Shown here one piece after another: positions 2,130 to 57,377 of a stretch of 64,000 nt of DNA. The DNA lies in IMG/VR virus record IMGVR_UViG_3300022689_000474, positions 1-64,000 of that record; one strand, given 5' to 3'. Under the pieces are notes generated by a model. The model saw only the letters and a program-made list of their open reading frames with translations. It was not told the origin of the DNA and did not search any database. This DNA is from a virus. The translations under genes were made by a program, and so were the position numbers. Positions within the stretch are counted from its first letter, which is position 1; each line of letters opens with the position of its first letter.

Positions 2130-2153
2130 ATTACAGAGTAGAATTATATTAGT

Positions 2154-2291: not shown

Positions 2292-2301
2292 CAGAAGTAT
2301 T

Positions 2302-4705: not shown

Positions 4706-4788
4706 TTTAATTAAAGAATACTTATAAGTAAAATAAATAGTCTATGTATTTTCTAGATATGAAAAATGAATGATTAATAGGTATAATT

Positions 4789-15982: not shown

Positions 15983-16005
15983 ATCAATTAACAATTATAT
16001 AACTT

Positions 16006-19000
16006 ATGTTCGGAATATTTAATAGAAATTCTAATCCTGATCCTAATAATTTAAATTCTCACTTATCTTCAAATATGGGAGTGGATAAAGGATTAGATCT
16101 AGGTTATATACAACATGGTACTGATACTGCTTTAAGAGGTGCAGTATTTTTTGATTACTTCTTTAATAATAACAGGAATATTAATGATTCTTATGATCCA
16201 TATGTAAATATAGGACATTCATTAAATAAAGAAGAAGTTCAAAGAATGCAGTATATGAAATATCACTCTAAAGATAGGACACAGAATCCTAATTTAGAGT
16301 TACAAGAACATGCTCGTATAGCTTTAGCTTCTAATGCTTTCACTTCATTTTCAGCTGATCTATATAATGTAACTCTAAGTGGTACTAAAGTAATCAATAG
16401 AGTCATAAATAAATCTACTCCCCAATATGATTTTTCATCTCTAAGTCCACTAGAAAGAGAAAGGAGAGAAAGAGAGGTAGATAAATATGCTGCTAGTAAT
16501 ATATATAGATATTTATTTGCACATGATACTTATGAGACTGCGGGTAAAAAGATATTTAAAAATTTAAATGTCATGGATCCTAAATTAATTGAACAAAGTA
16601 CTGAATATGGTACTGAGTATGATGGTATTTCTCAAGGTAGATGGTTAATAAATAATATCCTTAATGCAGAAGAACGTAGTAGTATTGCTAATGTTGCTAA
16701 AATACATCAGGAATTGATTTTATTAGATCCAGAAAGATTATCTAAAAGTAGAAAGGGAGTATATTCTAATCCTATAGAAGCTGTCAAACAAGTATCTGAT
16801 AGAATTATACAAGATAAAGAATATCTATCTAAACCGGGTATAAGACAAGCTGTAGCATTTATAGAAAGTGCAGAGAAAGAATTAACTATAGATCTATTCC
16901 AATTACAGAATAAAGCGATATCAGACGTATTGATAAATAAATTGACTAGAGAGAAAGATAGGATAGCTAAAGGAGATTTTAAGTTTAAAATAAGATTAGG
17001 AGCTCCTACTGGTGGAGATAGAGAAAACTTAATCGGTCATCATATATTAGGACCGAATATTATAATAATGCAAAGGTTAGGTAACCTTAGAGATGAGATA
17101 TTATTCGATCAATTGGGATATCGTTCCAGACCTAATAATAATATAAATGAAATAGTACCTTTCTTTAGTCAGGTAGATATGACTAGTAGTTATAATGAAT
17201 CTAAAAAGAATGAAGTAGATAAGATATTAAGTGATTCATTCTCTTTAGAATTTATGGATGATGGCATGTATCACCCTAAATTATTTACTAGTGATAAAGT
17301 GGCTATGGTCGGTTCATTTAACCTAACATCTCCAGTAGGTAGTTCTATATTTCAATCTGGTTCTAACTATGAAGAGATACAAGTATTAAGAAATAGATTG
17401 AATTTAGATTATGATAAGGCCGAACAAAAGGTTAATGATTATATGACAGACCCTTCAAAGGTTAATATACAGGATTTTGTTAATAGAGTAGCTAATAAAG
17501 AAAAGAAGTCTAGATATGGTAATAGAGGTCTGAATCCTCAAGAGAAAGAACTTCTGGATAAAGATACTGTGGAGACTATGTTATATCTTCAAGCTAGAAT
17601 ATTATCTAAAATGGGAGTACAAAGTCCTACAGGAGGAGGTAGTATAACAGGATTACAAATAGGTAAAGCGGGTGATATAGGTCAAGCTCTTAGAGCATCT
17701 ATTGGTTTTTTACAATCAGATAAGATTAGAGGAGATGGAAGGGTTTCAGAAATGTATATGAACTTGAACCAAGTCTGGTTACTTCAATTAGATAATGATC
17801 TTTTCTATGGTGCAGGAGGAGATTTTACTGGAGAATTTGGTCCTTCAGGTAAAGGTAGAGAGGAAGCTATAAAAGAATTGAAAAGATTGAGACCTCCTGT
17901 AGATGATTCAGGTATGGCATCTAGAAGATTTATATATAAAAGTGAAGTACAAAGTGGATTATTTGATTTAATACATCAAGGTAGAGCTTTTATTTCTGTG
18001 GATCAAAGGACTTATAGAGATAAGATATTGACACCTATGGAGGAAAAGGTCAATTATTTATTGGGAAGAAAAGAAATAGAAAGAAGGAGAAAAGAAGAAG
18101 GTTTTAGTTTATCTATTGATTCAATAAAAAGACAAGAAATAAGTGAAATAGGTAAAGGAGTATTATTGAGAGATTATGATGGTTCTATGGCTTATCTTGT
18201 ACGTAAAGCGGGTAATGATGATAATTTAAGAAGGACTTTAGGATTATCTAAACCTCAACAACCAGGAGATTTAGGATCTTATAACTACCAAAATAGTTCT
18301 ATGTTATTTGAAGGTAGAAAAGATTTATCTACTATGAATCATATTCATGAAACTAGTATCTTAAGAACTTTATCTCAATTAAAAGCTGTTACTAGTGGTC
18401 AGATAGTTCCAGTTACAGAAACGATGTCTCACGTTAAGAACTTTATGGTCATAGAAAGAAGTAGAGGACAGTCATATGATCCAGTGACTGGAGAAGGTAT
18501 AACACCATTATCTTATGTATCAGGTAGTAGTAACTTTGGTTCTTCTAGTTTAGCTTTTGAAGAAGGAGATAAAGATTATGTTAGTTCGGAATCTGGACTT
18601 ATACTCTTGGGAGATAAGATTCGAAATAGTAGGGATAGTAAAAAATATCTCTCTGATAAAGATAAGACTGCGGGTCTTAGTGATGAATATGAAGAATTAA
18701 TGTTGAAAGCTAGAGCTAAGTTTCCTATAAGAGAATGGAAAAGATTAACTAATGTAGAAATGGGTAATTTTGATTATACAGGTGCTACTCGTGAATCGGT
18801 CTGGAATGATAGAGTAAGTAGACAGGGACTTGAACAAGTAAAAAAAAGGATAGAAAGGATAAATGAAGATTTAGGTACTAATGCTATAAGTTTAATTCCT
18901 TCATATGATTCAAAAGGAGATTTAAGTTACTATACTATTAAATTTAGTAATAGTTCTGCTGTGGGGAGTTCATTTAATTCTATGTATATGGGATCTAGTA

Positions 19001-22000
19001 ATGAAATTAAATATAGGGTAACTGTCTTAAAAGATATTAAAGGTCAACCCGGTTTTGTATATATGATAGATCAGAATAAGGTATTGGGAAATACAAGATT
19101 AATGAATCAAACTGATGAAAGTGTATATGGATTACCTTATGCCTTAGAAGAAGGTCAGAAGTATAGAAGGATAGAAGCAGGAGAATCTTTAGAGTTAAAT
19201 CCTTTAGATACTTTTGCTAATTTGATGGGAACTCTTTTAGGTGAGAGTTCATTTAGAACTATGGTAGAGGAACCTATGAGATATATAAAAGTATTATCTG
19301 GATCTACTCTAAAGAGTAAATACTTATCCTCTTCTAATTATACTACAGCTTCTGTAGCTGGACTGGGATATTTAAGATTCCTTGGTACAGGTATAGCTTC
19401 TAATATTGAAGGTAAGAATTCAAAAGGTATATTTGAATTCTTTAATAAGTTAGATGCTAGGATGGCTCATGAAATAAGTAGAGAGTTTTACTCTAAACAT
19501 ATTAGTTTGACAGCTGAAGGAAGAAAAGGATTAGAAATGTCTGCAGGTCTATTTGACCCTACAGATATGAATAATTCAAGGACAGCAGAGAGACATTCAA
19601 TTATAAATGCCCTAAGTTCAATAGCAGTCTTAAATGAAAAGATACAAGAGGCTAAGAAGCATAATATCAGGGGTATAGGTAAAATTCAAAGTGAAAGGAA
19701 TCAACATATATCATTTATCCTTAATCAATTTGATAATATCTTAGGTAGACAAGAAAGGTCTACATTTGAATCAGATATAAGTTTGGGAGTTATTGAATCT
19801 TTAAGAGATATTACTTATTATCAAGGAAGAGATAATAATATAAAACAAATAAAACAATCTATATTTGAGCCTTTTATCTCTTTAGGACAGGCTTCTATAT
19901 ATGCCAATTCACAAGCTTGGTATAAAAATCCTATTTTTGCTTTAAGTCCATATTCAATAGAATATTTTAAAGAGGGTACTAATATTTCTGAGAATCCCTC
20001 TATGAATAATATAATGAGATATGCTTTGGCTAGTCCTTATTCATACTCATCTACAGATCCAACTGGAAAAGGTACTGAAGGATTTATAAGATCAGTTGCT
20101 GAAGGAGGAGGAGGAAAGACAACTGAAGAAGAAGGATATTCTTTATTTGGAGATATGAAGACTACATTTGGAGATATAACTTCTATAGATATCTTAAAGT
20201 ATACTGGTACAGGTAATATAGTTAAGAGAAGTGAATATGAAAATACAGTTATAAAGAAACTATATTTAGAATATCAAGCAACAGTATCTAATGGAATTAT
20301 AAATATATCTTTAGAAGATTTTACTCAACAGCTACAATCTGATAATCCTATGGGTGCATTACAACCCTATAAAGATATATTTAAGCGTCTTATACAAGAT
20401 ACTCCCTTCAAAGATGAATCAATAGATAGAGCATTAGTATTTAACTTCAATGTACCAAAGAAAGCAAGTCAGATACCTCAAAGATTGAAGAATGTATTAG
20501 GATCTAAACCAATGTACGAAATGGATAGTGGATTTAGTATTCTGTTGAGGAAGAAAGGAGTATTAACTTCTACAGAGATGAAATATTTTAAGAAGTTCTT
20601 AGAACAGAAACATAGATTAAATAGGACTAAACTACAAGAAAGTATTAAAAAGATAAATAAGTTAAGTAAATCTTCTTATAGTCTATCTCCAGATCAGTAT
20701 TTAGAAGCGATAATAGTTAGTAGACAGGTAGAACTAATGAAGGCGAGGATAAATAATAATAACACTAATATATTAACTCATTCTAAAAATACTAAAAGGA
20801 TAATAAGTAATGTATTGTCACTTATAGAAGAAGATTTATTTAATACGGGAATAGATAGTTTTGTTAGGAAAGCTGAAGAATTGATATGGAATGATAAGTC
20901 TAATTCAAAGACGAAAGAGAGAGAAAAAATAAAGGCTTTAGAATTTATAAAAGAAGCTTATCAAGATGTAAACCAATTAGTAGGTGAATCTAGTAAAGTA
21001 TCAATAATTAATGATAGTGATCTGAGGAATTATATGACTTCAGATCAACATGAAATAGTGGAAGGTCTAAAAGATAACTTATCGGAGATATATGGTTTTG
21101 ATAGAGATGAATATATGGATCATGGATCTTTAGCTAGAGCTTCATTATTAAATATTTTAAAAATGAATGATTCTTTAGCTTCTGGTATTAAAGGATTTAC
21201 TACAGGTAGAACTACTGTTAAAGGAAAGAAGAGTGTTATATTAGTCCAACTCTCAGGAGGTTTTTCTGATTATGGTTTTACTAATCCATTATATGGAAGT
21301 GATATAAACTTTCTTAAGGAAGCTAGGAAAAAGATGAAGAATGAAACCTATAAGAACCCTTTAACAAATAAGGAAATTGAACTTACTGATTGGTCTAATC
21401 TTTCTAGAGAAGATAAGATGAAGTTGGGTATGATGTCTGGATTTTTAGAGAAAGCTGAAAAAAGACAGAAATCTTCTATGTTAGTAGAAGATTGGTTTAT
21501 TCAAGGTAATAGGGTAGCTAGAAAAGGAGATATAGTGACTTATGATAATGAATCTAATAGAGTATTGGTATGGGGAGATAAAAGAGATATTTATAACTCT
21601 ATGATACCTTTAGATAAGATAGATATGGAAAAGATATCAAGAGCGGATAGAGAGAATCTTAAAAAGGCGGCGATAGGAGATGCTAAAGCAGCATATTACT
21701 TTAGAGAAGATGTGGATTCAAGGGACCAAGCATCTGCAATAGCAGGAACTATAGATAACTTTAGAGTTATAGATGATTTACCTACAGTGTCATTATTAGA
21801 AAGACAAGCTTGGCATAGGAATTCAGAAGAGAGTTATGAATATTTAATATCAGCTAAACAGTTATCAGGGGTGGCAGATACAAATCAGTTAATTTGGGAA
21901 TTTACATATAATAGATCAATAATGATGGGAGGGGGAAGAAGAGGAGAAGGTACTTCCTCTTTAGTAAAAGCTGTAAATGTATTCTTACAACCTAATATAT

Positions 22001-25000
22001 TTGAAAGATTAGCAGCTTCTTTAAATGAATTTGGAGGGGGGACTCTTAAAGCTGATCCATTATCTATAGAAAATATAATGGGTTTATATAGTCCTACTAA
22101 CTTTAAAAGTTATGCATACTCACATGGTGCGGAGATTTTATCTAATAAAGAATTAAGAGAGAACTTCATGGCCCAATTAGGAGTAAGAAATAAAAGAGGA
22201 GTAAATGAAATAAGTAGTAAACAATTAGGGGCGTTAATGCTACTTACATTTGGAGATACCTATTTAGAGGATAGTAGTAAAAAGAATATATATTCAGACT
22301 TCTTTGGTAGTGCATTATCAGGGGAGTTAGGAGAGTGGATGAAAGGATTAGCTCTCAGTTCAGTATTATCTACAGGAAAAGATATAACTTTAAATCAGAA
22401 TGAGATATCAAGATTAATGAGTGGTGCATTATTAAATGATGATTCTGACTTAAAGAAGTTAATGGTAAGTAATTTCCAATCTATGGTAAGTAAGAAGAGT
22501 AAAGATTTATTTGGTTCAATGCAACTACCATCTATAGATATGATAGATAGTAAAAAGTTTGAACTGTCATTTACTCAAGGTGGAGATTATATGAAGAAAT
22601 TCTTATCTAGACAGTTAGGTGCAATGGCTGATCTTGATAGAGATTATATACTAGGGGATGTGATGGAAGAAAGGATGGCTTCTATTATGGTAGGTAATTT
22701 AGAATTAATGTCTCAACTTATAGCTCAAGATACTTCTACAGTAGTACCTACAGATATAAATGTAGAAGATAATAAAACTTTAATCAAATTATTATCTATA
22801 AGTGGATATCAAGATATTGGTAGAATTCAAGATATAACTATAAGAATGGATAATAATTTACAAGTTCAACGAGAGGAGAGAGAGTATGTAGATAGTATGA
22901 GAGAGATATTAAAAGGTCTTACTAATACATCAAATATTGTTAGATTATATGGATCTGTTTTACCATCTGCTAGTAAAGAAGCGGTAGGTAGTAAGTTAAC
23001 TGGAGCTCTTGAATTCCAACATATGGTTAAACCTTTATATCAATTCTCTTCATCCTTTACTAATAAAGGAGAATTATCTGATTTAAGGAAAGTATTAGGT
23101 AATGTATTATCTACCATATCTCAGACAGAAAGTATGATTACTGGTGAAGCTATTCTTAGAAGGAATGATTTATTAACGGGTAGACCAGTAGATATAAGTG
23201 ATATGAACTCTTTATCTTCATTAGATCGTCATAAATTTATAGGAATAAATACTGCTTATGATCCAGAAAGTATAAAACAGTTAAGAGAATTAAAGAGGGA
23301 TTATAGAGATTATGAAGAAGGAATTAAATATATAATTGCTGATAAAGTAAAACAATTAAATAACTTACAAGGAGATTCATCTTTAAATAGATTAAAGAGA
23401 TTGGAATTAACTTCAGAGATATCAGATCTAATGACATTACAACCTGATTTCCTATATGAAGGTAGAGCTGGATATATGGATGAAGAAATAGAATATCTTA
23501 CAGTGAAATGGGATAAATCTCAGAAAGATGGTGAAGTGAGAATGAGAAGAGGAACTCAAACGAAAAGGATAAAAAGTATAGTTAGGAGTTATATGAAAAG
23601 TAATAAAGGTAAAAAGATATATAGTAGAAAAGGTACAGAACTAAATATCCTTGAATCTTTAGAAGCTGTTTCAGGTAGGATGGCTATTGATATAGGTAGG
23701 GTTCAACAGGCTTTAAATCCAGATACTCCATTTGGTATGGGGACAATTCAACCAGTATTAGAAGGTTTAGATTATAGATCATTTTCTTTCAGTCTTCCTA
23801 GTTTTATGGTAGAAGGTCAAGATGAATCAGGAGGGGTCTCTTTATCTTTTGATTATTCAGATAAAGCTAAAAGATATAGTTACTTAATGGGTGCTTCTGA
23901 ATTGCAATTATTAGGAGATCAATATGGTTCATATGTAGAAGAACTTACTGCAAAAACTATTTATCTTGCTAGTGCTTTTGCTCCTGGTAGTAATTTGTCC
24001 ATAATTATGGATAAAATAAAAAGAAGTAAGTTATCTGGTGATTCTAGAGTCTCACTTACTAAAGAAGAATATACTCTATGGCAAAGGTATTATGAAACTG
24101 CTGTAGGGAATAGGGGTATAGTTCCTTTATTAGCTGAAGCATCCGCTAATGTAAGATCTCAACAAGTAATGGCAGGTAAAATAAGATTAGCTGGTATAGT
24201 TACAACTCCTGCGGCATCATTCTTAGTAAACCCAGGAGATATATTATTAGCACAGGAAGGAGAAAGAAGACAAATACATATGTCAGAGAATCGATATACA
24301 TTGTATAGAGAAGCTATAAGTAAAGAAGCTCAATTTCAAAGAATAATGTCAGATGAAAATGAATTGGCTAAATATGGTAGAGGTTCTATAAGTAGAGTTA
24401 TAGATTATTATTCATCTTTACAAAGTGCAATGTTATATGGATTATCAGAACCTGCAACTTTAAACTTATCTAAGTTCTCAGATGAATTCACCAAATTGAA
24501 TGAAAAGATAGATAAATATAGTAATAAAGATTTTGATAAAGTAGCAGAGCATCTTTCTAATCAAATAGCAAGATTAAATGATATGGATCTATCTTTAATA
24601 TCTCCAGAAGAAGGAAAGGGAGATTCATATTTAAAGAACTTACAAGAAGTATCTTCTATTTATTTAAGAAGAAAGTTAGAGAGAAAGTTATTCTCTTCTA
24701 CTACAAATATTACTTCTAAACAGAAAGTAGGTTTAATTAGAGGTATAAAAGCTTTAGAAAGTCAAGTATTAGAAACTACTTCTAAAGAAGTAGAGAATTA
24801 TATAAGTTTAAAGAAATTAGGTTTGGCTGATGCTATAGAAGGTATACAAAATGTATTTCAAGGAACTAGTCAAGTTTCTCAATATGCAGTATCTAAATTA
24901 GAGATGTTAGATAGACTTAAAAGAGGTGTATTTAGTGATAAATCTGTAAGAAGAGTAATTAATCCAGATGGTTCTATAAGGGAATCAATGAATATAGATA

Positions 25001-28000
25001 CACTTAACTTTAAAGTAGAAGAAGGATTAGCTAGATCAGTATCTTCCGAAAAGTTATTACAGGATATAAAGGGGATGTATGATGTATTATATACTACTGA
25101 TTTATATGATAAACAAAATAGAATATCTTCACAATATAGTAGTAACTTAAATAGTAAAAATCTAAGTATTTTACAAAGTACATCTAAGTCAATAACGGAA
25201 TTAAGAGATACAAATAAGAATAATCTTAGAATTAACTCATCTACACTTAATGATTATCAAAAAGGTTTAGCAAGTATATCTCTTGAAGTGGCAGAGATAA
25301 TGAATGAAGATATTAATTATTTACTTACTGGTAAAAAGACTAATTCTAGTAATGATCTAATTAGTAGATTGGAAAATAGATTAAAACAATATGGTACTTA
25401 TCAAAAAGGTACTACTGAGAGAACGATATATGATACCATGTTGAAGAAAGTAGTAGAAGATATAGAAGATAAAAGAAAGAATTCTGAAGTCTTTGGTATG
25501 GGAGAAGTTACTGATCTTATTAGTAAGAATATTAATAAAGAGATAGGAAGGATTAGTAGAGAGGTGTCTTCTAAAAGATATTTATTAAAAGAGGGAAGAG
25601 AATTAGAACAAAAAGTAAAAAATAATGAAGATGTTAATTGGAATCAATTTACTGAATTTCTACAAGCTCTTGAGAAGAATAAATATACAGATCCTGAAAT
25701 AACAGAATTATATAATTCTCTAAAGAGTCAGGTTAGATCTGTATTAACAGCGGGTAGAAGATTTTTAGAAGACCCTTTATCTAAATTATTAAAAGATATA
25801 CCTACATTAGCAACTGGAGTATTAGGAGGTAGAGATAAATTTGCTATAAGTGAATTTGAATTAGAAGGAAAGTTAAGAAAGAGAGTATCTCCATTCAAGA
25901 TAGATAAAGAATTATTAAGGGATTCAGCTAGATATACAGATGAAGATATATCTTTCCTTACTTTCTACACTAAAGAAGTATTCAATCAATTTGAGACGGT
26001 AAATGAACATTTAAGACAAGTAAGTGAAGGAACTCATAAAGCAACAGATACATATACAAGTATGGTATCTGAAAAGAGTAGAGATTCTTTCTTAAAGTTA
26101 ACTAAGTCCGTAGAAGCAATATCTAATACTTTGGAAGAATTACAAAGTAGTAGACAAATAAATGTAACTGACGATAGGTTAAAAGATATTTTATCTGTAT
26201 ATACTGCGGAGATTCCTGGTATGGAATCATCATCAGTAGAGATAAATAAACGTTTAGGTAAAGCTAGAGATTTGTTAACAGGTAATAGAAAGGGTAATAC
26301 TGTTGATGCATATGGTTTAGTTAATGTATTCCAAGAGATATTAAATACTTATGATAATACGGATGCAATGAGAGTATTAGGTTTTAGATCTCCACCTCCT
26401 GGAGGTAATGAACCTCAAAGATATACTTTAGAAGTATTAAAAGATATAAGTCTTATAAATGAATATTCAAGAGCGGTAAATCCTCAAGGAGGTGTTGAAT
26501 ATGATCAAGGAAGAAATAAGACATTAACTTTATTAAATCCCATATCGTTATTGACTATGAGTTTAGGAGATTTTGATGGAGATCCATATACAACGATATA
26601 TAGTAACTTTATGGATTTACATAGAGAAGTATATAATACAGAAGTTAAAGTAAAGTTCAAAGAAGAAATCCAATTAAAGAAGATAGAAAGTTTAATATCT
26701 AGGAAATCAGCAATATCTGGTTTATCTTTAAATGAGAATGATATAAAAGATTATATATCAAATAATCAATCTACTCTAGAAGAAGAAGATAATACTTTAT
26801 TAAATGAATGGTTAAGTAAGAAAGCAGAAATAGCTAGCCATAGAAAAGATATATCAGTTACTAATTTGAAGATAACTGCTATGAACCGTGAGTTAGAGAA
26901 TAGTAATTTTAATAAAGCATTAAGAAGAGAGATATCTAATTATATAGGTGTAAATCAAAAACATTTCTTATCTGTAGATAATGGCGGATATAGAGATGTA
27001 GATATAAGTACAGATGTAGCCTTAACATTTATAGAACAAGGTAGAGGGTTATTTGGAGGTTTAGAAGAAAAAGCTCCTGAAGCTGTAAGAGTAAATGATA
27101 CATTAAAATCTATATTCAAATTATATCCAAATAATAATGTAAGTGTACCAAATAGACCCAATCCTTCAACAGGAACTTATGATATAGAAGCATTTAGAAA
27201 GATAATAGAATCCTCGGACAATAATGAAATACTAACTACTTTAAGAGATAAGATAACTAATTCTTTATATGCTAGTAATAATAATCAAAATAATGGAGCT
27301 TTATATTCATTATTACTATTAAGTCAGGAATCTTTACAATCTCAAATGAATCAAGCAGGGTCTACTGCTTCTAATAATTCTCTAGATCCCTTAATTAGAG
27401 AATTAAGAGAATCTAGGAATTTCTTACAGAATGAAGGGAAGGTATCAACTGGTACATTAAATGACAAGGATATAGAAGAGATTCTTGCTTATACCTCAGC
27501 TAGAGCTATGACTCAGGCATCTAGTTTAGGTGGACTTAAAGGAATGTTGGCCCAATCAACAGGTACAAGTATGGACTTTCAGACAAGTGATATGATGGTT
27601 TTAACAATGGGTAAAGCCGGTTCAGATGTATTAGGTAAGATATATAATACATTTATTGGAGCAATATATAGGGATAGTCCTCTAATAGCTACAAGTCATG
27701 TAATGACTCAAGGAGGTTTCTTAGAGAGTATAAGAAATAATCAACAAATGAGAGATACTATAGCTTTAGAAGGTTTAACAGTAGATGATTTTGTATCTGA
27801 ATTAAAGAGTTCTCAAGAAACAACTGAATCGCTACATGGTTTCATAAAAGATATAAATCAATTATTAAGGGATGGAATTAAACCGAAAGGGGGTCAAGAT
27901 CTATTAGAAAACTTAAAGAAACAGGCTGCGGTATATGAAACATTACAAGATCCTGCTGATAAGGAAGCATTAATAACCAAGATAGCATCATCTTTTGGTC

Positions 28001-30522
28001 CATCAGGATCTGAGATGGGATTATTTGCATTAATGGAATTATCTAGTTTAGAGGCAAAAAGAGAAGAATTATTAAGTTCTAATATGAATAGTACTTTAAG
28101 GATTAAGGAAATAGAGTCGGGAATAGGTCAAGGGGTAAGTACTAATATAGTAAGTTTTGATAATAAAGATTATCAAATAGAAAATAATTTCTATGCTATA
28201 AATTATGGAGATCCTTACTCTTCAGCATTTAGAGATAAGAATTCAGTATCAAGGAGTTTAAGAGAAGACTTTGGTTTATCTTCAGAACAATTTAATAGAT
28301 TAGCAGTAGAGATTCATAAAAATACTAAAAGAGAAAGTGTAAATGCATTTGAGATAGCTTCTTTAAAAGCAACTAGAGATCTACAATCTTTAATAATAAG
28401 TTATCAATATCATAATTTAATGGAAGGGTCATTAACTGAAGAATCAGTTTCAGCTGGAGGATCTCAAGTATTAGAATCTACTTATGGAAGATATTTACAA
28501 GAAGGAAGAAATATAACTGATCCAAATGCTCTCAAGAGTGGAATCAATTCATTTAGGAATAGATCTTTATCTATAAACGAGATGGATGATTTTGATAATT
28601 GGATAAAAGGGAAGATATCTTCTGATTCTCGTATAAGTTATATAGGTAGTACTATATTAGGAGTTAGTGAGGAAGAGTTTAATACTAATTTTATCAATGG
28701 TACGGATAAACATTTAATGAAGAATAGAGCAGCTTTCCTAGCTGTAGCAGAACAAGGACTTACAGCTACAAGTGGAATGTTAGGGAATTATGGTGAAGGT
28801 ATGGAAAGATTTACATCATTTGAGACTGCTAGGAAAAAAACAGGTATGTTATTAGCTGGTTCTTCAGAGCATATGCCAGACGAAGTTTTAGGATCTGATT
28901 TATGGATGACCGTAATGAACTTAATGTCTTCTGATAAGTTAAAACCCCATGCAGCTTCAGCCGCTTTTAGAATTATAGCCGAGGCAGATAGTTTATTTTC
29001 TACTGATTCAGATGCTTTAGTAACTCTTATATCAGGTATAGATGAAAATGATAATGTAATATATAACCAAGGTACTGATACTTTTACTCAAAAAGGTCCT
29101 AATAGTAAACAGAGGAAGTTTAGGAAAGCAATGAGAGCCTTATTAACAAATAATAACTTAAGTTCTATAGAAGTAGAAGGAACAGTATTTGAATCAGATG
29201 GAGAAAAGAATGCAGTATTTAATTATTTAAATACAATGATTGAAGAGTCGGCTACTAGTATGAGGAATAAAGCTTTAGAAGAATTTATACAAAGATCAAC
29301 AGGTAGATCAGATCTTATATTTGGAGACCCTTCAGAAATAATAAATAAAGTTATAGATGATACTAAAGTAACTCCAGAACAAAAGAAGGAATTAGAAGAT
29401 CAATTATCAATGTCTTTAGAGGAATTAAAATATGAAAGAATAAAGAATCATATCGGTGGAATAGATCCTTTAGGTAAACCTATGACACCCCGTAATATAA
29501 ATATGGAGATAAGTAAAAGGTTGACTCTTGAAAGTATGAGTAAAGCTCAAGAGAACTCCAATAAGGTGGCATCAATGCATGATATGATATTACCGGGTTT
29601 ATTAAGTGTTGTAGGTGGAGCTATATTAGGAGGTAGATTAGATGAAGAAGTAGTTGGAGATATAGTTGGAGGTACAATAATGTCTATGGCTTATATGAAA
29701 CAAAGTCGTATATTTCAACCAGTAGAAGATAGACCTGATGGTTCATATCCAAGGAATTCTAGTTCTAGACAGGGTATCAATAATACAAGGGGGATTTTAT
29801 CTACATTAAAGAATAAAGGGACAGGTATAACTAAGAATTTAGCCAATATAGGTGTAGGAGCATTAAGTGCGGGTACATTTAAGATAGATATGGCATTGAT
29901 GCAACATGAAGGAGATCATGGAGATGCTATGGCCTATTTAATAGGGACAGAATTAGGATTTGCAGTAGGATCAAATTTAGTTAGTCCTTTAGTTGAAGGT
30001 GCGGCTACTAAATTAAGTACAGCACATCTAGATGCTCTTCACTCAAGAGCTAGAAATTATGAAGCGGCTAGATTAACCTCTGGTCAAAGAACAGAATATT
30101 TATTAAAAGGAACAGCTGGTGTATTAGATGAAGATCAATTTGCTGGAGTAAAATCTTCATTCTCAACAGTAGGTGGAGCTATATTATCTGGATTGTTAGG
30201 TATAGCTTCTGCAAAACTTGGTGGATCAGTAGCTGTTGATTTACTTAATTCAAATGGAGATTTCTCTGAAATAGCCTTAGTGGAGGGTCTAATGAATGCA
30301 GTAGATATGAATAAATATAAGGCAGAAAAAGAAGCTTTCTTAAGACAAGATTCACCTGATGTTACAGATGAATTTGGATATCCAGTTGATCAATACTTAA
30401 GTAAAGTTGATCTAATGGAAGATTACTCTGGAGATGCTATATCTCCTGATTCCCCAATACCAATAGAATATCTATTAGATCAAGAAGCTGCAATGAATGG
30501 ACAGACTTTATTCTATGGATGA
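16006..30522 (+). CDS. giant 4838-aa protein: tandem PLD domains + single-chain two-barrel RNA polymerase + Gly/Ala-rich hydrophobic C-terminus (candidate virion RNAP)
   Basis: HPKLFTSD..GSFN (17272-17322); HVK..GSSN (18430-18534); MAGKIRLAG (about 24170); GFRSPP (R at 26386); LLNP..LGDFDGDP (DFDGD at 26569-26583). Confidence 0.75.
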   Translation: MFGIFNRNSNPDPNNLNSHLSSNMGVDKGLDLGYIQHGTDTALRGAVFFDYFFNNNRNINDSYDPYVNIGHSLNKEEVQRMQYMKYHSKDRTQNPNLELQEHARIALASNAFTSFSADLYNVTLSGTKVINRVINKSTPQYDFSSLSPLERERREREVDKYAASNIYRYLFAHDTYETAGKKIFKNLNVMDPKLIEQSTEYGTEYDGISQGRWLINNILNAEERSSIANVAKIHQELILLDPERLSKSRKGVYSNPIEAVKQVSDRIIQDKEYLSKPGIRQAVAFIESAEKELTIDLFQLQNKAISDVLINKLTREKDRIAKGDFKFKIRLGAPTGGDRENLIGHHILGPNIIIMQRLGNLRDEILFDQLGYRSRPNNNINEIVPFFSQVDMTSSYNESKKNEVDKILSDSFSLEFMDDGMYHPKLFTSDKVAMVGSFNLTSPVGSSIFQSGSNYEEIQVLRNRLNLDYDKAEQKVNDYMTDPSKVNIQDFVNRVANKEKKSRYGNRGLNPQEKELLDKDTVETMLYLQARILSKMGVQSPTGGGSITGLQIGKAGDIGQALRASIGFLQSDKIRGDGRVSEMYMNLNQVWLLQLDNDLFYGAGGDFTGEFGPSGKGREEAIKELKRLRPPVDDSGMASRRFIYKSEVQSGLFDLIHQGRAFISVDQRTYRDKILTPMEEKVNYLLGRKEIERRRKEEGFSLSIDSIKRQEISEIGKGVLLRDYDGSMAYLVRKAGNDDNLRRTLGLSKPQQPGDLGSYNYQNSSMLFEGRKDLSTMNHIHETSILRTLSQLKAVTSGQIVPVTETMSHVKNFMVIERSRGQSYDPVTGEGITPLSYVSGSSNFGSSSLAFEEGDKDYVSSESGLILLGDKIRNSRDSKKYLSDKDKTAGLSDEYEELMLKARAKFPIREWKRLTNVEMGNFDYTGATRESVWNDRVSRQGLEQVKKRIERINEDLGTNAISLIPSYDSKGDLSYYTIKFSNSSAVGSSFNSMYMGSSNEIKYRVTVLKDIKGQPGFVYMIDQNKVLGNTRLMNQTDESVYGLPYALEEGQKYRRIEAGESLELNPLDTFANLMGTLLGESSFRTMVEEPMRYIKVLSGSTLKSKYLSSSNYTTASVAGLGYLRFLGTGIASNIEGKNSKGIFEFFNKLDARMAHEISREFYSKHISLTAEGRKGLEMSAGLFDPTDMNNSRTAERHSIINALSSIAVLNEKIQEAKKHNIRGIGKIQSERNQHISFILNQFDNILGRQERSTFESDISLGVIESLRDITYYQGRDNNIKQIKQSIFEPFISLGQASIYANSQAWYKNPIFALSPYSIEYFKEGTNISENPSMNNIMRYALASPYSYSSTDPTGKGTEGFIRSVAEGGGGKTTEEEGYSLFGDMKTTFGDITSIDILKYTGTGNIVKRSEYENTVIKKLYLEYQATVSNGIINISLEDFTQQLQSDNPMGALQPYKDIFKRLIQDTPFKDESIDRALVFNFNVPKKASQIPQRLKNVLGSKPMYEMDSGFSILLRKKGVLTSTEMKYFKKFLEQKHRLNRTKLQESIKKINKLSKSSYSLSPDQYLEAIIVSRQVELMKARINNNNTNILTHSKNTKRIISNVLSLIEEDLFNTGIDSFVRKAEELIWNDKSNSKTKEREKIKALEFIKEAYQDVNQLVGESSKVSIINDSDLRNYMTSDQHEIVEGLKDNLSEIYGFDRDEYMDHGSLARASLLNILKMNDSLASGIKGFTTGRTTVKGKKSVILVQLSGGFSDYGFTNPLYGSDINFLKEARKKMKNETYKNPLTNKEIELTDWSNLSREDKMKLGMMSGFLEKAEKRQKSSMLVEDWFIQGNRVARKGDIVTYDNESNRVLVWGDKRDIYNSMIPLDKIDMEKISRADRENLKKAAIGDAKAAYYFREDVDSRDQASAIAGTIDNFRVIDDLPTVSLLERQAWHRNSEESYEYLISAKQLSGVADTNQLIWEFTYNRSIMMGGGRRGEGTSSLVKAVNVFLQPNIFERLAASLNEFGGGTLKADPLSIENIMGLYSPTNFKSYAYSHGAEILSNKELRENFMAQLGVRNKRGVNEISSKQLGALMLLTFGDTYLEDSSKKNIYSDFFGSALSGELGEWMKGLALSSVLSTGKDITLNQNEISRLMSGALLNDDSDLKKLMVSNFQSMVSKKSKDLFGSMQLPSIDMIDSKKFELSFTQGGDYMKKFLSRQLGAMADLDRDYILGDVMEERMASIMVGNLELMSQLIAQDTSTVVPTDINVEDNKTLIKLLSISGYQDIGRIQDITIRMDNNLQVQREEREYVDSMREILKGLTNTSNIVRLYGSVLPSASKEAVGSKLTGALEFQHMVKPLYQFSSSFTNKGELSDLRKVLGNVLSTISQTESMITGEAILRRNDLLTGRPVDISDMNSLSSLDRHKFIGINTAYDPESIKQLRELKRDYRDYEEGIKYIIADKVKQLNNLQGDSSLNRLKRLELTSEISDLMTLQPDFLYEGRAGYMDEEIEYLTVKWDKSQKDGEVRMRRGTQTKRIKSIVRSYMKSNKGKKIYSRKGTELNILESLEAVSGRMAIDIGRVQQALNPDTPFGMGTIQPVLEGLDYRSFSFSLPSFMVEGQDESGGVSLSFDYSDKAKRYSYLMGASELQLLGDQYGSYVEELTAKTIYLASAFAPGSNLSIIMDKIKRSKLSGDSRVSLTKEEYTLWQRYYETAVGNRGIVPLLAEASANVRSQQVMAGKIRLAGIVTTPAASFLVNPGDILLAQEGERRQIHMSENRYTLYREAISKEAQFQRIMSDENELAKYGRGSISRVIDYYSSLQSAMLYGLSEPATLNLSKFSDEFTKLNEKIDKYSNKDFDKVAEHLSNQIARLNDMDLSLISPEEGKGDSYLKNLQEVSSIYLRRKLERKLFSSTTNITSKQKVGLIRGIKALESQVLETTSKEVENYISLKKLGLADAIEGIQNVFQGTSQVSQYAVSKLEMLDRLKRGVFSDKSVRRVINPDGSIRESMNIDTLNFKVEEGLARSVSSEKLLQDIKGMYDVLYTTDLYDKQNRISSQYSSNLNSKNLSILQSTSKSITELRDTNKNNLRINSSTLNDYQKGLASISLEVAEIMNEDINYLLTGKKTNSSNDLISRLENRLKQYGTYQKGTTERTIYDTMLKKVVEDIEDKRKNSEVFGMGEVTDLISKNINKEIGRISREVSSKRYLLKEGRELEQKVKNNEDVNWNQFTEFLQALEKNKYTDPEITELYNSLKSQVRSVLTAGRRFLEDPLSKLLKDIPTLATGVLGGRDKFAISEFELEGKLRKRVSPFKIDKELLRDSARYTDEDISFLTFYTKEVFNQFETVNEHLRQVSEGTHKATDTYTSMVSEKSRDSFLKLTKSVEAISNTLEELQSSRQINVTDDRLKDILSVYTAEIPGMESSSVEINKRLGKARDLLTGNRKGNTVDAYGLVNVFQEILNTYDNTDAMRVLGFRSPPPGGNEPQRYTLEVLKDISLINEYSRAVNPQGGVEYDQGRNKTLTLLNPISLLTMSLGDFDGDPYTTIYSNFMDLHREVYNTEVKVKFKEEIQLKKIESLISRKSAISGLSLNENDIKDYISNNQSTLEEEDNTLLNEWLSKKAEIASHRKDISVTNLKITAMNRELENSNFNKALRREISNYIGVNQKHFLSVDNGGYRDVDISTDVALTFIEQGRGLFGGLEEKAPEAVRVNDTLKSIFKLYPNNNVSVPNRPNPSTGTYDIEAFRKIIESSDNNEILTTLRDKITNSLYASNNNQNNGALYSLLLLSQESLQSQMNQAGSTASNNSLDPLIRELRESRNFLQNEGKVSTGTLNDKDIEEILAYTSARAMTQASSLGGLKGMLAQSTGTSMDFQTSDMMVLTMGKAGSDVLGKIYNTFIGAIYRDSPLIATSHVMTQGGFLESIRNNQQMRDTIALEGLTVDDFVSELKSSQETTESLHGFIKDINQLLRDGIKPKGGQDLLENLKKQAAVYETLQDPADKEALITKIASSFGPSGSEMGLFALMELSSLEAKREELLSSNMNSTLRIKEIESGIGQGVSTNIVSFDNKDYQIENNFYAINYGDPYSSAFRDKNSVSRSLREDFGLSSEQFNRLAVEIHKNTKRESVNAFEIASLKATRDLQSLIISYQYHNLMEGSLTEESVSAGGSQVLESTYGRYLQEGRNITDPNALKSGINSFRNRSLSINEMDDFDNWIKGKISSDSRISYIGSTILGVSEEEFNTNFINGTDKHLMKNRAAFLAVAEQGLTATSGMLGNYGEGMERFTSFETARKKTGMLLAGSSEHMPDEVLGSDLWMTVMNLMSSDKLKPHAASAAFRIIAEADSLFSTDSDALVTLISGIDENDNVIYNQGTDTFTQKGPNSKQRKFRKAMRALLTNNNLSSIEVEGTVFESDGEKNAVFNYLNTMIEESATSMRNKALEEFIQRSTGRSDLIFGDPSEIINKVIDDTKVTPEQKKELEDQLSMSLEELKYERIKNHIGGIDPLGKPMTPRNINMEISKRLTLESMSKAQENSNKVASMHDMILPGLLSVVGGAILGGRLDEEVVGDIVGGTIMSMAYMKQSRIFQPVEDRPDGSYPRNSSSRQGINNTRGILSTLKNKGTGITKNLANIGVGALSAGTFKIDMALMQHEGDHGDAMAYLIGTELGFAVGSNLVSPLVEGAATKLSTAHLDALHSRARNYEAARLTSGQRTEYLLKGTAGVLDEDQFAGVKSSFSTVGGAILSGLLGIASAKLGGSVAVDLLNSNGDFSEIALVEGLMNAVDMNKYKAEKEAFLRQDSPDVTDEFGYPVDQYLSKVDLMEDYSGDAISPDSPIPIEYLLDQEAAMNGQTLFYG

Positions 30523-30836
30523 TTAAGATCTTTTAAATAACTTAAGAGATAAAATAGGACATTATTTCTTAGTCTTTTATTATCTCTTTCTATAAGTAAA
30601 TGATTACACATACAAATTAATTTTTTATGTGTTTTATTGAAGTAAGCTATTTCTAAATCAAAAGGGGTAGTATATTGAGATGTAATAATATTTATAGAAT
30701 ATTCTTCACAAAAGTTAACTATATCTTCTTTAGTATCTAGATAAGTGCAAGTAATTATATCTTTTATATTTATTAATCTGATATATATTAATAATGTATC
30801 TAATATTTCGAGGCTTTCATTATTTTCTGATATCAT
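30513..30836 (-). CDS. hypothetical protein
   Basis: 107-aa ORF convergent with the giant gene. Confidence 0.55.
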   Translation of the reverse strand: MISENNESLEILDTLLIYIRLINIKDIITCTYLDTKEDIVNFCEEYSINIITSQYTTPFDLEIAYFNKTHKKLICMCNHLLIERDNKRLRNNVLFYLLSYLKDLNHP

Positions 30837-30850
30837 TATTTATTCTTTAT

Positions 30851-31147
30851 TTAATACCAATCTTTTTTTATTTTATTTAATATGAAATTTAAGAATAGAA
30901 AAAATCTCCTACACTCTTTTATATAGATAGTACTAACACCTCTTAATAATTCATTTTTCATGATGTATCTAGCTCTTATTAGACTGTTTACATCTCTAAA
31001 TTTATAAAACTCAATTATCTCTTTAGAAATTTCAGATTTACTCCTTTTAGTTTTTATTGATTCCTTCTCTATGAATTCAATAAGTTTATAGATATAATAT
31101 TCTTTAATTGCAGGGTCTTTCTCTTTAATAAAGTAATTAGCTTTCAT
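30851..31147 (-). CDS. hypothetical protein
   Basis: 98-aa ORF. Confidence 0.55.
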   Translation of the reverse strand: MKANYFIKEKDPAIKEYYIYKLIEFIEKESIKTKRSKSEISKEIIEFYKFRDVNSLIRARYIMKNELLRGVSTIYIKECRRFFLFLNFILNKIKKDWY

Positions 31148-31973
31148 AAATTCTTTCAGTTAAAGTATCTAGATTTAATTGATCAAAACTTCTTTCTACA
31201 TAATACTCACTATCTTTATATTCTTGTGTATTAATAAAATTATCTTTAAAATGTTGTTTGCCAGGAGGTTTTAATCTTTTATTAAATTCAGTGTCTTTTA
31301 GATGTATTAAAGTATCTCTATAATTAATATCTTCTCCTAATGGATGGATCCTATCTGAACCTTGTACTTTTGTAGTACCATATTTTTTTATAGTTAACTC
31401 CTGATGTTCTTTTGTCAAAAGGATAGTTAAGTAATTATAAGTTACTGGACTTATTTTACCAGTATCTTTAGTTTCACCTCTATATTCTCTTATAAGAACT
31501 TTAAAGAAATCATTTGAATTTATACTAATACCTAATGCTTTATTAGGAAATATTTTAATTTTAGGGGAATCATATTCTTCAGTGATAGTATCTTCTAATC
31601 TATTATAAAATAGTTCTTCTTTAAGATATTTCAATCTAAATCTATCCCATTTATAGAATTGATTACTAGATCTATAATTATCCTCATAAAATTCTTTAGT
31701 AACTCTATAGAAATTCTTTCCTCCAAATAATGGATGGTCCTCTTCTAATTCAATTTCTACTACTTTCATTATTAATGGAGAAGGTTGTATTATCTCTTTA
31801 TATTCTCTAGTTGTTTGCTTTCCTACTATTACATTAGTACCTATATTCCAAACCATATCTAAAAATGGTATATATTCTTGTATTGTATCTGTAGAGAATC
31901 CTTCATCTATATTAGGTACTTCTACTTTTATTCCATTTATATTCTTAATTAAGTTCTTATTTGTTATACCCAT
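31137..31973 (-). CDS. hypothetical protein
   Basis: 278-aa ORF directly after the PAAR-like gene. Confidence 0.7.
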   Translation of the reverse strand: MGITNKNLIKNINGIKVEVPNIDEGFSTDTIQEYIPFLDMVWNIGTNVIVGKQTTREYKEIIQPSPLIMKVVEIELEEDHPLFGGKNFYRVTKEFYEDNYRSSNQFYKWDRFRLKYLKEELFYNRLEDTITEEYDSPKIKIFPNKALGISINSNDFFKVLIREYRGETKDTGKISPVTYNYLTILLTKEHQELTIKKYGTTKVQGSDRIHPLGEDINYRDTLIHLKDTEFNKRLKPPGKQHFKDNFINTQEYKDSEYYVERSFDQLNLDTLTERIYES

Positions 31974-31981
31974 ATTTAATA

Positions 31982-32239
31982 CTACGTTATATATGTTTCA
32001 AAATCACAAGTTAAAGTATAACCGGCAGTACATAGACCTACATGTATAGCTACACTCATATTGCATGCAAATACTGTAGCACTAGGAGTAGCTAAGAATC
32101 CTGCATAACATGAATCAGTTAGCCTACTAATAGGTTTACCATGAGAATATACAAACCAACATCCCATATATACTGGTCCAGTACCAGAATATGGATATGT
32201 TGCTACAGTTAAATCACCTACTCTCATTGGATGTGGCAT
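31982..32239 (-). CDS. PAAR-like spike-tip protein
   Basis: PMRVGD, VYSHGKPISRLTD, SATVF; about 85 aa with Cys/His residues. Confidence 0.7.
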   Translation of the reverse strand: MPHPMRVGDLTVATYPYSGTGPVYMGCWFVYSHGKPISRLTDSCYAGFLATPSATVFACNMSVAIHVGLCTAGYTLTCDFETYIT

Positions 32240-32645
32240 ATAATTTATCTTCAAATTCTTTTATTTCTTCGTAAACTTTTTTCTTATCTAAAAAATCTTT
32301 TATTATATCTTTTGGGTAAGTATCTTCCCATTCTTTTTTTCCCCATCCAAAAGGGCTTTCAAAAGAATCAATAATAAAAGGAGTACCATATGGATGAGAA
32401 AATATAATAGGTCCATTAGTAAAACATTTAAAACCTTTTTCCTCATTTATAAGTATAAATATATTATGTATCTTTATTAAAATACCTTCTTGAGAATCAG
32501 TAACTCTATCTAACCATACTTTAATAGATTTTAAATAATCATAATTCATTGAAGAATAGTTTTGTAAGTTGCTTAAATCTATTATTTCTATTTTTTTTAT
32601 TATCTTCCAAGTAATCTTTAATATATCTATTATATTTCTTATCAT
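32214..32645 (-). CDS. hypothetical protein
   Basis: 143-aa ORF overlapping the PAAR start. Confidence 0.65.
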   Translation of the reverse strand: MIRNIIDILKITWKIIKKIEIIDLSNLQNYSSMNYDYLKSIKVWLDRVTDSQEGILIKIHNIFILINEEKGFKCFTNGPIIFSHPYGTPFIIDSFESPFGWGKKEWEDTYPKDIIKDFLDKKKVYEEIKEFEDKLYATSNESR

Positions 32646-32726
32646 AATATTTTAAAGTATTTACCAAATGGTTCATGTTATTCATAATACATCACTTATT
32701 ATCTACATGTATATATATTATATTTA

Positions 32727-32747
32727 AAGCTTGGGTACCCCAAGCTT
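32727..32747. terminator. GC-cored hairpin next to a TTAA repeat tract
   Basis: AAGCTTGGG-tac-CCCAAGCTT in the intergenic gap. Confidence 0.55.
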
Positions 32748-32796
32748 AATTAATTAATTAATATATATTATAAGATATAAGATATACTTGATTTTA

Positions 32797-33309: not shown

Positions 33310-33325
33310 ATTTACTCTTTTAGAT

Positions 33326-33344
33326 TATATATATATATATATAT
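33326..33344. repeat. (TA)9 microsatellite running into a start codon
   Basis: tatatatatatatatatat-g in the 33-nt gap between divergent genes. Confidence 0.9.
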
Positions 33345-36126: not shown

Positions 36127-36161
36127 ATTTAAATAATTTAAATTAGTAAAGAATATAGTAA

Positions 36162-37652: not shown

Positions 37653-37661
37653 TTTGTTTAT

Positions 37662-38150: not shown

Positions 38151-38159
38151 AAGATTTAT

Positions 38160-57368: not shown

Positions 57369-57377
57369 TGACTAAAT

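Follow-up and report, generated by a model that had tools for sequence, protein, structure and literature searches.

Two giant virion proteins, gp66 of the crAss-like Cellulophaga phage phi14:2 (PDB 6VR4) and gp96 of the Thermus phage P23-45, were both discovered as two-barrel RNA polymerases from a DxDxD-type motif. The phi14:2 enzyme, a single chain of 2,180 aa from a podovirus, is mostly without recognisable homologues and was recognised solely via its DFDxD motif (DFDID); its gene belongs with the structural genes, and the packaged enzyme acts on the early genes. P23-45 gp96 is a tape measure protein of 5,002 aa with an exact DFDGD at residues 779-783, a metallopeptidase domain and membrane segments. 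It was found by a motif search among virion proteins and is a virion RNA polymerase without other detectable RNA polymerase similarity; the polymerase is N-terminal (aa 327-1124) in a fusion with the tape measure, and the gene lies in the tail module. Published two-barrel RNA polymerase families often share nothing outside the DxDxD region, and matches to the curated models PF00623 and PF05183, which the protein considered here also lacks, are missing for validated phage families (PMC10770324). The QDE-1/eukaryotic RDR family (PF05183) and YonO of SPbeta have a D-bulky-D-G-D motif with an R-x-P upstream, as does the protein described here, and the identical DFDGD occurs in RpoC, the beta' subunit of bacterial RNA polymerase. 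The virion RNA polymerase of coliphage N4 (Schitoviridae) is likewise giant (~3,500 aa), packaged in the head and ejected with the DNA, and has non-catalytic N- and C-terminal domains; it is a T7-like single-subunit polymerase, not a two-barrel enzyme, and its likeness to the present protein is functional.

The DNA analysed here, termed the window, comprises 64,000 nucleotides (positions 1 to 64,000 of the IMG/VR virus record IMGVR_UViG_3300022689_000474). As a preliminary description had stated, nt 16006-30522 are one giant ORF, with an ATG start (Table 1). The homologue in Microcystis phage Ma-LMM01, gp080, is annotated 'hypothetical', and the family is a closed one of 68 clusters with proteins of 3,200-5,400 aa; a metagenome scan gave four loci only. 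When the full-length protein was compared with Pfam and PHROGs, a weak PLDc_2 match and PHROG 31006, of unknown function, were the only results, and no paper was found that reports a giant gp080-type protein as a single-chain two-barrel RNA polymerase. Like phi14:2 gp66, the protein is a giant single chain mostly without recognisable homologues, but differs in its length of 4,838 aa, its DFDGD, its PLD domain and a 664-aa insertion, and its phage has a contractile tail and a Mu-type portal. Sequence searches, and fold searches with low-confidence AF2 models, gave no match to gp66. Compared with P23-45 gp96, the motif lies much further along the chain (aa 3522) and the gene is beside the portal; only 10-15 columns around the motif aligned between gp96 and the family in hhalign. 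Since the invariant DFDGD resembles the catalytic site of cellular RNA polymerases and the gene lies beside the portal, the protein may be an injected RNA polymerase. Seen as a virion-linked giant multidomain protein, it is plausibly a new single-chain two-barrel RNA polymerase, an identification with an even chance at best.

Table 1. Coordinates of the giant ORF, its blocks and motifs, and the neighbouring genes in the window
Feature	Position (nt)	Strand	Description
Giant ORF	16006..30522	+	4,838 aa; Ma-LMM01 gp080 homologue; PHROG 31006
N-terminal PLD-superfamily domain	16813..18600	+	aa ~270-865; two HKD-type motifs
HKD motif 1	17272-17322	+	H423-x-K425...G436-S-x-N439; residues invariant or nearly so
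HKD motif 2	18430-18534	+	H809-x-K811...S841-x-N843; residues invariant or nearly so
Invariant K-x2-Q-x2-Q-R-x-K-N-x2-G motif	20461..20502	+	aa 1486-1499; also used as search pattern
Block B ('beta-like' region)	21217..22185	+	aa 1738-2060; conserved; invariant D1755, N1760, P1761, G1975, G1977, R1979, K1988, P2030, K2034, S2035, H2040, G2041
Block B2	22873..23085	+	aa 2290-2360; conserved S2321, K2324, E2336, Q2338
Block C1	24058..24330	+	aa 2685-2775; A-G-K-x-R-x-x-G-x-V-x-T, invariant G2730; proposed first half of the motif-bearing domain
Lineage-variable, mostly helical insertion	24331..26322	+	aa 2776-3439, 664 aa; separates C1 from C2
Block C2	26323..26640	+	aa 3440-3545; invariant R3461-S-P-P-x-G, N3485, R3503, S3514, G-D-F-D-G-D (aa 3521-3526, nt 26566-26583)
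Long antiparallel helical hairpin	26581..26898	+	aa ~3526-3631; directly after the motif
Block E	26923..27105	+	aa 3640-3700; Q-G-x-G-L-x-x-G
Block D	27523..28002	+	aa 3840-3999; G-x-A-G-x3-L-G-x2-Y-N and Q-x2-R-D-x-I-K-x-K; modelled as long helices
Gly/Ala-rich C-terminal region	29575..30285	+	two weakly hydrophobic segments, aa 4524-4542 and 4718-4736; conserved G/L columns
Minus-strand gene block	30513..38999	-	between the giant gene and the p165/p161/portal genes
Mu-type portal gene	40165..41547	+	PF06074 1e-23; phrog_113; synteny in 35 loci
Major capsid protein	44540..45808	+	phrog_30785 1.7e-97; PF03864 (Phage_cap_E)
Tail sheath	51010..54075	+	phrog_30392 3.7e-148; PF17482

Each of the 70 family members above 3,000 aa had a single GDxDGD, at the same alignment position, with x mostly F and otherwise Y, W, L, N or T. 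The majority of these members had been recruited with a profile of aa 1660-2850, which does not contain the motif. The preliminary description had staked its proposal in part on such conservation in homologues. In a 15-member alignment R3461, S3462, P3464, G3466 and the whole of G3521-D3522-F3523-D3524-G3525-D3526 were invariant. An arginine was located 58 aa upstream of the motif in 67 of the 70 members, with a proline 2-4 residues after it, the strict form [RK]xP being found in only 33. The conservation of GDxDGD and R-S-P exceeds chance. The pattern [RK]xPx{20,100}DxDxD has served as a screen for two-barrel RNA polymerases (PMC10770324, Supplementary Data 4); the window protein matched it exactly once, at R3461 (R3461-S-P, 58 aa upstream), although 21% of shuffled proteins of this length match as well. 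VLGFRSPP (aa 3457) and DFDGD (aa 3522-3526, nt 26569-26583) were found where they had been placed beforehand, as were the beta'-like strings VMAGKIRLAGIVTTP (aa 2721, nt 24166) and VNPGDILL (aa 2741) and the beta-like strings VILVQLSGGFSDYGFTN (aa 1744, nt 21235), RSIMMGGGR (aa 1970) and IMGLYSPTNFKS (aa 2024).

The insert, originally estimated at roughly 700 aa, proved to be a true insertion of 664 aa. The flanking blocks C1 and C2 adjoin in two distant members, L030 (gap 17 aa) and L037 (gap 0), where together they make up a domain of about 150-170 aa. Across the members this gap ranged from 0 to more than 1,000 aa, and the occupancy of the insertion columns was 0.39-0.65, about 45%. Helices appeared in the insertion in a low-confidence AF2 model, and long helices with invariant G/K/Y/N and Q/R/D/K columns were located 320-470 aa downstream of the motif. 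In the compact members the spacing from the Lys to N-R-A was 67 aa, similar to that of the beta' barrel halves (about 79 aa in E. coli by our own count). The N-R-A-G-G of L030 compares with N-R-A-P-T in beta', and the hydrophobic segment x-L-x-L-x-N-P before the family motif with I-Q-L-H-P. Unlike bacterial beta', the window protein had no PF00623 match and no RpoB-like partner was detected.

No polymerase was among the matches when phmmer and three profiles, representing the motif region, the N-terminus and the compact C1C2 domain, were run against PDB sequences; the matches to the motif-region profile were coiled coils and antibody CDRs with a chance DFDGD. Twelve motif-region fragments gave nothing consistent in Pfam at E<=10. 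The PF05183 HMM gave an 11-bit match at the motif of the L037 homologue, far under the cut-off of 23.8, no match in the window's own genome, and a weak sub-threshold match in the B. subtilis control genome, presumably to YonO. The ESM-feature neighbours of aa 3430-4000 were clusters with PF05183 RdRP (score 0.78), which is a lead only, and a look-alike search with aa 1735-2360 returned no usable match.

In hhalign, the six family blocks aligned with the single sequences of E. coli RpoB and RpoC and P23-45 gp96 over 9-10 columns, at DFDGD. Against reference profiles built from 78 RpoC and 70 RpoB sequences, C1C2 matched beta' with a score of 26.1 (P 0.0011). Shuffles that kept only the six motif columns had a mean of 25.1, and 34 of 150 reached 26.1; the score stems from the DFDGD columns alone. 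With L030 as master, the best match of C1 on beta' 300-957 was R-Q-N-L-L-G-K-R-V-D-Y-S-G-R-S-V-I, a score reached by 2 of 120 shuffles. This match is fragile, because with the window protein as master the best beta' site of C1 shifted to E. coli 616-652, which does not keep the order relative to the motif, and ranked about the same among shuffles (1 of 100). Block B, for all its invariant basic residues R1979, K1988 and K2034, gave nothing above shuffled controls against the RpoB profile, and block D, which might speculatively be likened to the bridge helix, had no profile similarity to that of beta'. The resemblance to RpoB claimed for the beta-side strings was thus no better than that of shuffled controls, while of the claimed resemblance to beta', DFDGD and its arrangement with [RK]xP stood and the part outside the DFDGD columns had no statistical support.

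The AF2 model of window aa 2560-3740 (30 rows) had a mean pLDDT of 57, with the motif domain below 50, and that of aa 1797-2403 of the compact L030 homologue (43 rows) a mean of 64.6, with the core below 50. A double-psi beta-barrel around DFDGD, the lack of which the preliminary description had named as refuting its proposal, was not obtained in either model; with the motif domain at a pLDDT below 50, this neither refutes nor supports the proposal. Foldseek with these low-confidence models against PDB and VIA-wide returned coiled-coil or helical matches only, which are uninformative. A complex prediction of block B, C1C2, block D and Mg scored 0.03 and gave no answer.

Judged by its motifs, the N-terminus of the giant protein is a PLD-type double-HKD domain. 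PF13091 (PLDc_2) matched nine of twelve members, the best at E 1.4e-7; the window protein scored 23.4 bits, below the 27-bit cut-off, and weak PDB profile matches to the HKD motifs included the poxvirus virion nicking-joining enzyme and PLD4. The PLD-like domain is the sole domain in the protein that a curated model recognises.

These results would also suit a giant protein that is packaged and ejected but is not a polymerase, with G-D-x-D-G-D as the Mg2+ or Ca2+ site of a nuclease, phosphodiesterase or glycosidase, or as a structural metal site. Such a protein would act with its PLD domain on the host nucleic acid or envelope at entry. It would account for a PLD-like domain as the only one with a curated model and for a polymerase similarity that all reduces to the motif; portal linkage and a hydrophobic C-terminus suit any ejection protein, and fold prediction, with the motif domain at pLDDT <50, yielded no barrel. 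Several features argue instead for a polymerase, 1) the motif is D-bulky-D-G-D, with Gly at position 4, invariant Arg and Pro upstream and an aromatic residue at +2 after it, 2) the ESM neighbours are labelled RdRP, and 3) the ~2,200 residues conserved around GDFDGD are far above what a metal site needs. A D-bulky-D-G-D pattern of this kind is the signature of two-barrel polymerases, not of the D-x-D-x-D-G calcium loop. The non-polymerase role was considered rather unlikely, if far from negligible.

In 35 loci (portal identities of 22-47%), a Mu-type portal gene was found at 0.9-2.9 kb from the giant gene and the capsid gene within 4-8 kb. In the window the distance to the portal is 9.6 kb because of the inserted block of minus-strand genes, in place of which the relatives have only about 1-3 kb. 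The linkage of the giant gene to the head module is tight and ancient, as expected for a packaged protein. No virion proteome of any relative was found in the literature, and the MaMV-DH01 paper states that mass spectrometry is still needed. A myovirus with a Mu-like head had been proposed for this phage. The sheath gene indicates a contractile tail, in agreement with the first part; in the head, the portal is of the Mu type (PF06074) but the capsid matches Phage_cap_E.

A tail tape measure protein with enzymatic domains has a precedent in P23-45 gp96, with its 5,002 aa and DFDGD, and the window protein, comparable in length, carries hydrophobic Gly-rich segments in its C-terminal part. However, the tail genes of the window are at 51010-60233, and the giant gene adjoins the portal rather than lying between the tube/chaperone and baseplate genes. 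Other candidates for the tape measure are the ORF at 55119-57368 (749 aa), in the tail module after the sheath and the next ORF, and an ORF of 5,484 aa elsewhere in the record. A tape measure spans about 1.5 Å of tail per residue. A protein of 4,838 aa would imply a tail far beyond the 260 nm reported for the relative MaMV-DH01. The tape measure assignment was rejected on gene position and is very improbable. The 5,484-aa ORF has 12 hydrophobic segments.

Ma-LMM01- and MaMV-type phages have been described as without an RNA polymerase and dependent on host transcription (PMC5780444; MaMV-DH01 paper). A six-frame HMM search of the 152-kb record with PF00623 (Rpb1_2), PF05183, PF00562 (Rpb2_6) and PF04542 (sigma-70 region 2) gave no match; the absence of a PF00940 match, for a T7-type RNA polymerase, is uninformative because none was obtained in any control genome either. 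No clear motif emerged when the genome was searched by k-mers for a repeated element resembling a promoter. In Ma-LMM01, gp080 falls into the middle class B5 'M', its read count at the early points was zero, and it adjoins the five late genes; these data concern the homologue only. A middle gene beside late genes could encode a two-barrel RNA polymerase that is not part of the virion, a middle-period enzyme transcribing the few late genes (capsid, sheath), and the failure to detect a phage sigma factor or another RNA polymerase (the PF00940 search being uninformative) is consistent with this. To our knowledge, however, non-virion phage RNA polymerases are unlike a protein of 400-540 kDa that is fused to a PLD domain and has a hydrophobic, Gly-rich tail. 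In addition, the link to the portal gene persists at portal identities as low as 22%, which speaks for a head component, and the late promoters of Ma-LMM01 look sigma-70-like (PMC5780444). A non-virion enzyme was therefore judged improbable. Sigma-70-like promoters have also been reported upstream of the early genes of Ma-LMM01 (PMC5780444), so the need for an injected RNA polymerase is not obvious.

Taken as a whole, the observations are best explained by a packaged, injected, very divergent single-chain two-barrel polymerase of a Ma-LMM01-like phage, an explanation to which we give somewhat less than an even chance. The ORF would encode a giant multidomain protein that belongs to the head module of a phage with a Mu-type portal and a contractile tail. 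Synthesis of the protein would most likely fall in the middle or late period, after which it would enter the particle and reach the cell together with the DNA. The single-chain nucleotide polymerase, second barrel included, would correspond to the conserved core at aa ~1740-4000. The G-D-F-D-G-D of C2 is a candidate Mg-binding catalytic loop, in which Asp 3522, 3524 and 3526 would hold the catalytic Mg2+, while R3461 of R-S-P may contact the RNA 3' end, as in the N-R-x-P...N-A-D-F-D-G-D of beta'. The 664-aa insertion splits the motif domain in this phage, and the core is joined on its N-terminal side to a PLD-type (double HKD) phosphodiesterase domain and on its C-terminal side to a Gly-rich hydrophobic region. 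An extension about equally tentative is that Ma-LMM01-type phages and a wide range of uncultured 150-250-kb relatives with Mu-type portals package and inject an unrecognised, extremely divergent family of single-chain two-barrel RNA polymerases fused to a PLD nuclease, the catalytic barrel of which tolerates insertions of 0 to >1,000 residues.

The true insertion, the portal linkage in 35 loci, the PLD-type N-terminus and the placing of gp080 in the middle, not the early, class are new here. The insertion hot spot (0 to >1,000 aa) in the domain of the putative catalytic motif helps to define the minimal core. Should the core not be a polymerase, what remains is a giant protein that is conserved, linked to the portal and equipped with a PLD domain. 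The polymerase idea can be tested directly, as both Ma-LMM01 and MaMV-DC are cultured. If the core does prove to be a polymerase, another independent lineage would join crAss gp66 and P23-45 gp96 among the giant virion two-barrel RNA polymerases. It would be the first from phages that combine a contractile tail with a Mu-type portal, as well as the first with a fused PLD domain, and it would change the view of how the Microcystis bloom phages Ma-LMM01 and MaMV infect their hosts.

One ATG-initiated open reading frame encoding 4,838 residues occupied positions 16006-30522 of the plus strand, and all of the strings quoted in the preliminary description were found at the residues and nucleotides assigned to them. 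It was the sole plus-strand gene within a run of minus-strand genes, which accounts for its distinct G and A skews. The divergent upstream gene probably starts at an ATG only about 23 bp away (15983-16005), and no Shine-Dalgarno sequence was visible; the promoter must lie within the neighbouring gene.

The giant protein matched PHROG 31006, of unknown function (E 1e-78), and tblastn found homologues in the Microcystis phage Ma-LMM01 (gp080, a 3,562-aa 'hypothetical protein'), MaMV relatives and a Microcoleus phage. A word-index search recovered 17 giants, and a family profile of residues 1660-2850, which lacks DFDGD, retrieved 68 clusters from 1.84 billion representatives, nearly all of 3,200-5,400 aa, with no shorter or otherwise known proteins among the matches. 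The expected conservation of DFDGD was borne out: G-D-x-D-G-D occurred once, at the equivalent place, in 70/70 members longer than 3,000 aa, x being mostly F, otherwise Y, W, L, N or T, and the leading G was replaced by N or L in two IMG/VR members. Invariant columns of a 15-member alignment included R3461, S3462, P3464, G3466, N3485, R3503, S3514 and G3521-D3526. This family-wide invariance indicates that the motif is functional and not a chance string. The closest named homologue, P0003 (NCBI record; 57% identity over residues 3300-3800), is incomplete at 3,212 aa and was submitted under the name Arthrospira platensis SPKY2, which suggests that the culture or the assembly contained a relative of the phage; as a host clue, A. 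platensis does not fit well with the 29% G+C of the window. The NrdD of the upstream arm is an anaerobic ribonucleotide reductase, and together with the G+C content it hints that the host has a low G+C content and lives where oxygen is scarce.

The conserved regions are listed in the table. The HKD-type residues of the PLD domain were invariant or nearly so, and PF13091 matched 9 of 12 family members (best E 1.4e-7), with the window protein just under the curated cut-off. Residues 2776-3439, between blocks C1 and C2, had low alignment occupancy. When the blocks were mapped onto 39 IMG/VR loci, the C1-C2 gap was 0 aa in one compact member (L037), 17 aa in another (L030), about 85-100 aa in four further loci and up to more than 1,000 aa elsewhere. 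The proposed insert thus marks a real hot spot of insertion, interrupting one domain of about 150-170 aa formed by C1 and C2. The C-terminal 300 aa were Gly/Ala-rich with two weakly hydrophobic segments.

Features of the giant protein and other genes of the window
Feature	Residues	Nucleotides	Strand	Remarks
PLD-superfamily domain	~270-865			two HKD-type motifs: H423/K425/N439, H809/K811/N843
Block B	1738-2060
'Beta-like' strings	at 1744, 1970, 2024
Block B2	2290-2360
Block C1	2685-2775
A-G-K-I-R-L-A-G	2723-2730
Block C2	3440-3545			bears motif
R-S-P-P	3461-3464
DFDGD	3522-3526	26569-26583	+
Block E	3640-3700
Block D	3840-3999
NAD-dependent DNA ligase, NrdD, its radical-SAM activase, 2OG-Fe(II) oxygenase		2558-4540, 10950-11558, 11635-13665, 14979-15608	-	upstream arm
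Mu-type portal		in window		PF06074, 1e-23
Three-domain lysin	692 aa	60716-62794	+	GH108 lysozyme, M23 peptidase, VanY carboxypeptidase; after baseplate gene

The strongest new result was the linkage to the portal gene, whose PF06074 match upheld the Mu-like head as far as the portal is concerned; the window also encodes a capsid protein, sheath, baseplate protein and the lysin. When the phage's proteins were compared with all family loci by local tblastn, 35 loci with flanking DNA showed a portal homologue (22-47% identity) at a distance of 0.9-2.9 kb from the giant gene, usually upstream and divergent, downstream and co-directional in four, with the next head genes following it. The window has the same order (giant gene, p165, p161, portal), except that an 8.5-kb minus-strand block (30513-38999), an insertion by comparison with some 35 related loci, stands between the giant gene and the other three. 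The block includes a protein with a weak FecR match (38160-38999) and a gene, 36162-37652, with matches to several unknown-function PHROGs. That the giant and portal genes stay linked while the portal diverges this far points to a protein of the head module. Ma-LMM01 gp083 (locus L001 2386-3726; record 69235-70575), annotated 'tail protein', is homologous to the window portal (tblastn 5e-74) and is probably a portal itself.

Elsewhere in the 152-kb record, a second giant ORF of 5,484 aa (G000:C1:109005-125459) contained 12 hydrophobic, Gly-rich segments and lacked a DxDxD motif; this or a 2,610-aa ORF (G000:C1:90975-98807) could be a tape measure or further ejection protein. At G000:C1:~86000-86500, four exact 16-mers, TAAATCAAGGAGGTAC, recur at 120-bp spacing inside a 790-aa ORF (84375-86747), indicating a predicted 40-residue tandem repeat.

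Sequence comparisons gave the polymerase reading little beyond the motif. No curated Pfam polymerase model matched the protein, phmmer and three profiles found no solved polymerase among PDB sequences, and PF00623, PF05183 and PF00562 had no match in six-frame searches of the whole record. PF05183 (RdRP) gave one 11-bit match, which fell on the motif in the L037 homologue, and a weak sub-threshold match in the B. subtilis control genome, position not reported, which we presume to be YonO. For hhalign, RpoC and RpoB profiles were built from 78 and 70 proteobacterial genes. With L030 as master, 139 columns of C1C2 aligned with beta' 325-485 (P 0.0011), but shuffles keeping only the six motif columns equalled this score (mean 25.1 versus 26.1; 34/150 reached 26.1), so that outside the DFDGD columns the claimed beta' resemblance had no statistical support. 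With the L030 master, the best hit of C1 alone fell exactly on R-Q-N-L-L-G-K-R-V-D-Y-S-G-R-S-V-I of beta' (score reached by 2/120 shuffles); when the window protein was the master, the best hit was a different site, E. coli 616-652, whose order relative to the motif is wrong, at a similar rank (1/100); since the site depends on the master, the C1 resemblance is unproven. Block B gave no signal against RpoB, where the claimed beta-side likeness did not exceed that of shuffles. The pattern [RK]xPx{20,100}DxDxD, used to screen for two-barrel RNAPs (PMC10770324), occurred once in the window protein, but 21% of shuffled sequences of this length contain it too. By ESM features the clusters nearest residues 3430-4000 carry PF05183 (score 0.78), only a lead, and residues 1735-2360 had no usable look-alike.

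At the low confidence reached, AlphaFold2 resolved no barrel around DFDGD, either in residues 2560-3740 (mean pLDDT 57, motif region below 50) or in the compact L030 module (43 rows; mean 64.6, C1-C2 core below 50). Foldseek and VIA searches with these low-confidence models matched only coiled-coil hairpins, corresponding to a confidently modelled helical hairpin after the motif.

The main rival is an ejection enzyme that is not a polymerase. Motif features of the two-barrel superfamily are present, and similarity to its curated models is not. For a putative second barrel, block B has the invariant basic residues R1979, K1988 and K2034; for a bridge helix, long helices with invariant G/K/Y/N and Q/R/D/K columns lie 320-470 aa past the motif, and they had no profile similarity to the bridge helix of beta'. 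The sequence nulls weigh less because 1) for many validated RNAP families no significant similarity extends outside the DxDxD region (PMC10770324) and 2) the virion RNAPs of crAss-like phage phi14:2 (gp66) and Thermus phage P23-45 (gp96, TMP-fused) were both discovered from the motif alone. These two and N4 vRNAP are the closest functional analogues; in motif context, the QDE-1/RDR/YonO clade and beta' come closest. Ma-LMM01 gp080 belongs to the middle class of genes and had no reads at early time points (PMC5780444, Supplementary Table S3), which fits a packaged protein and counts against an early non-virion enzyme. HMM searches detected no other RNAP or sigma factor in the 152-kb record (PF00940 was silent in control genomes too), and Ma-LMM01-type phages are described as encoding no RNAP; the sigma-70-like promoters reported upstream of Ma-LMM01 early genes count against the need for an injected enzyme (PMC5780444).

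The chances that the protein is a two-barrel polymerase appear roughly even, and the full reading, a packaged and injected RNAP, is tentative, somewhat short of an even bet. The papers searched contained no report of the family as a polymerase; the P23-45 virus census is restricted to genomes encoding at least two RNAP polypeptides (PMC10770324) and so has no bearing on its novelty. The giant protein is real, conserved and portal-linked; it contains a PLD domain, and its polymerase-type acidic motif is invariant. The polymerase question is worth pursuing, and Ma-LMM01, which is in culture, allows a test.
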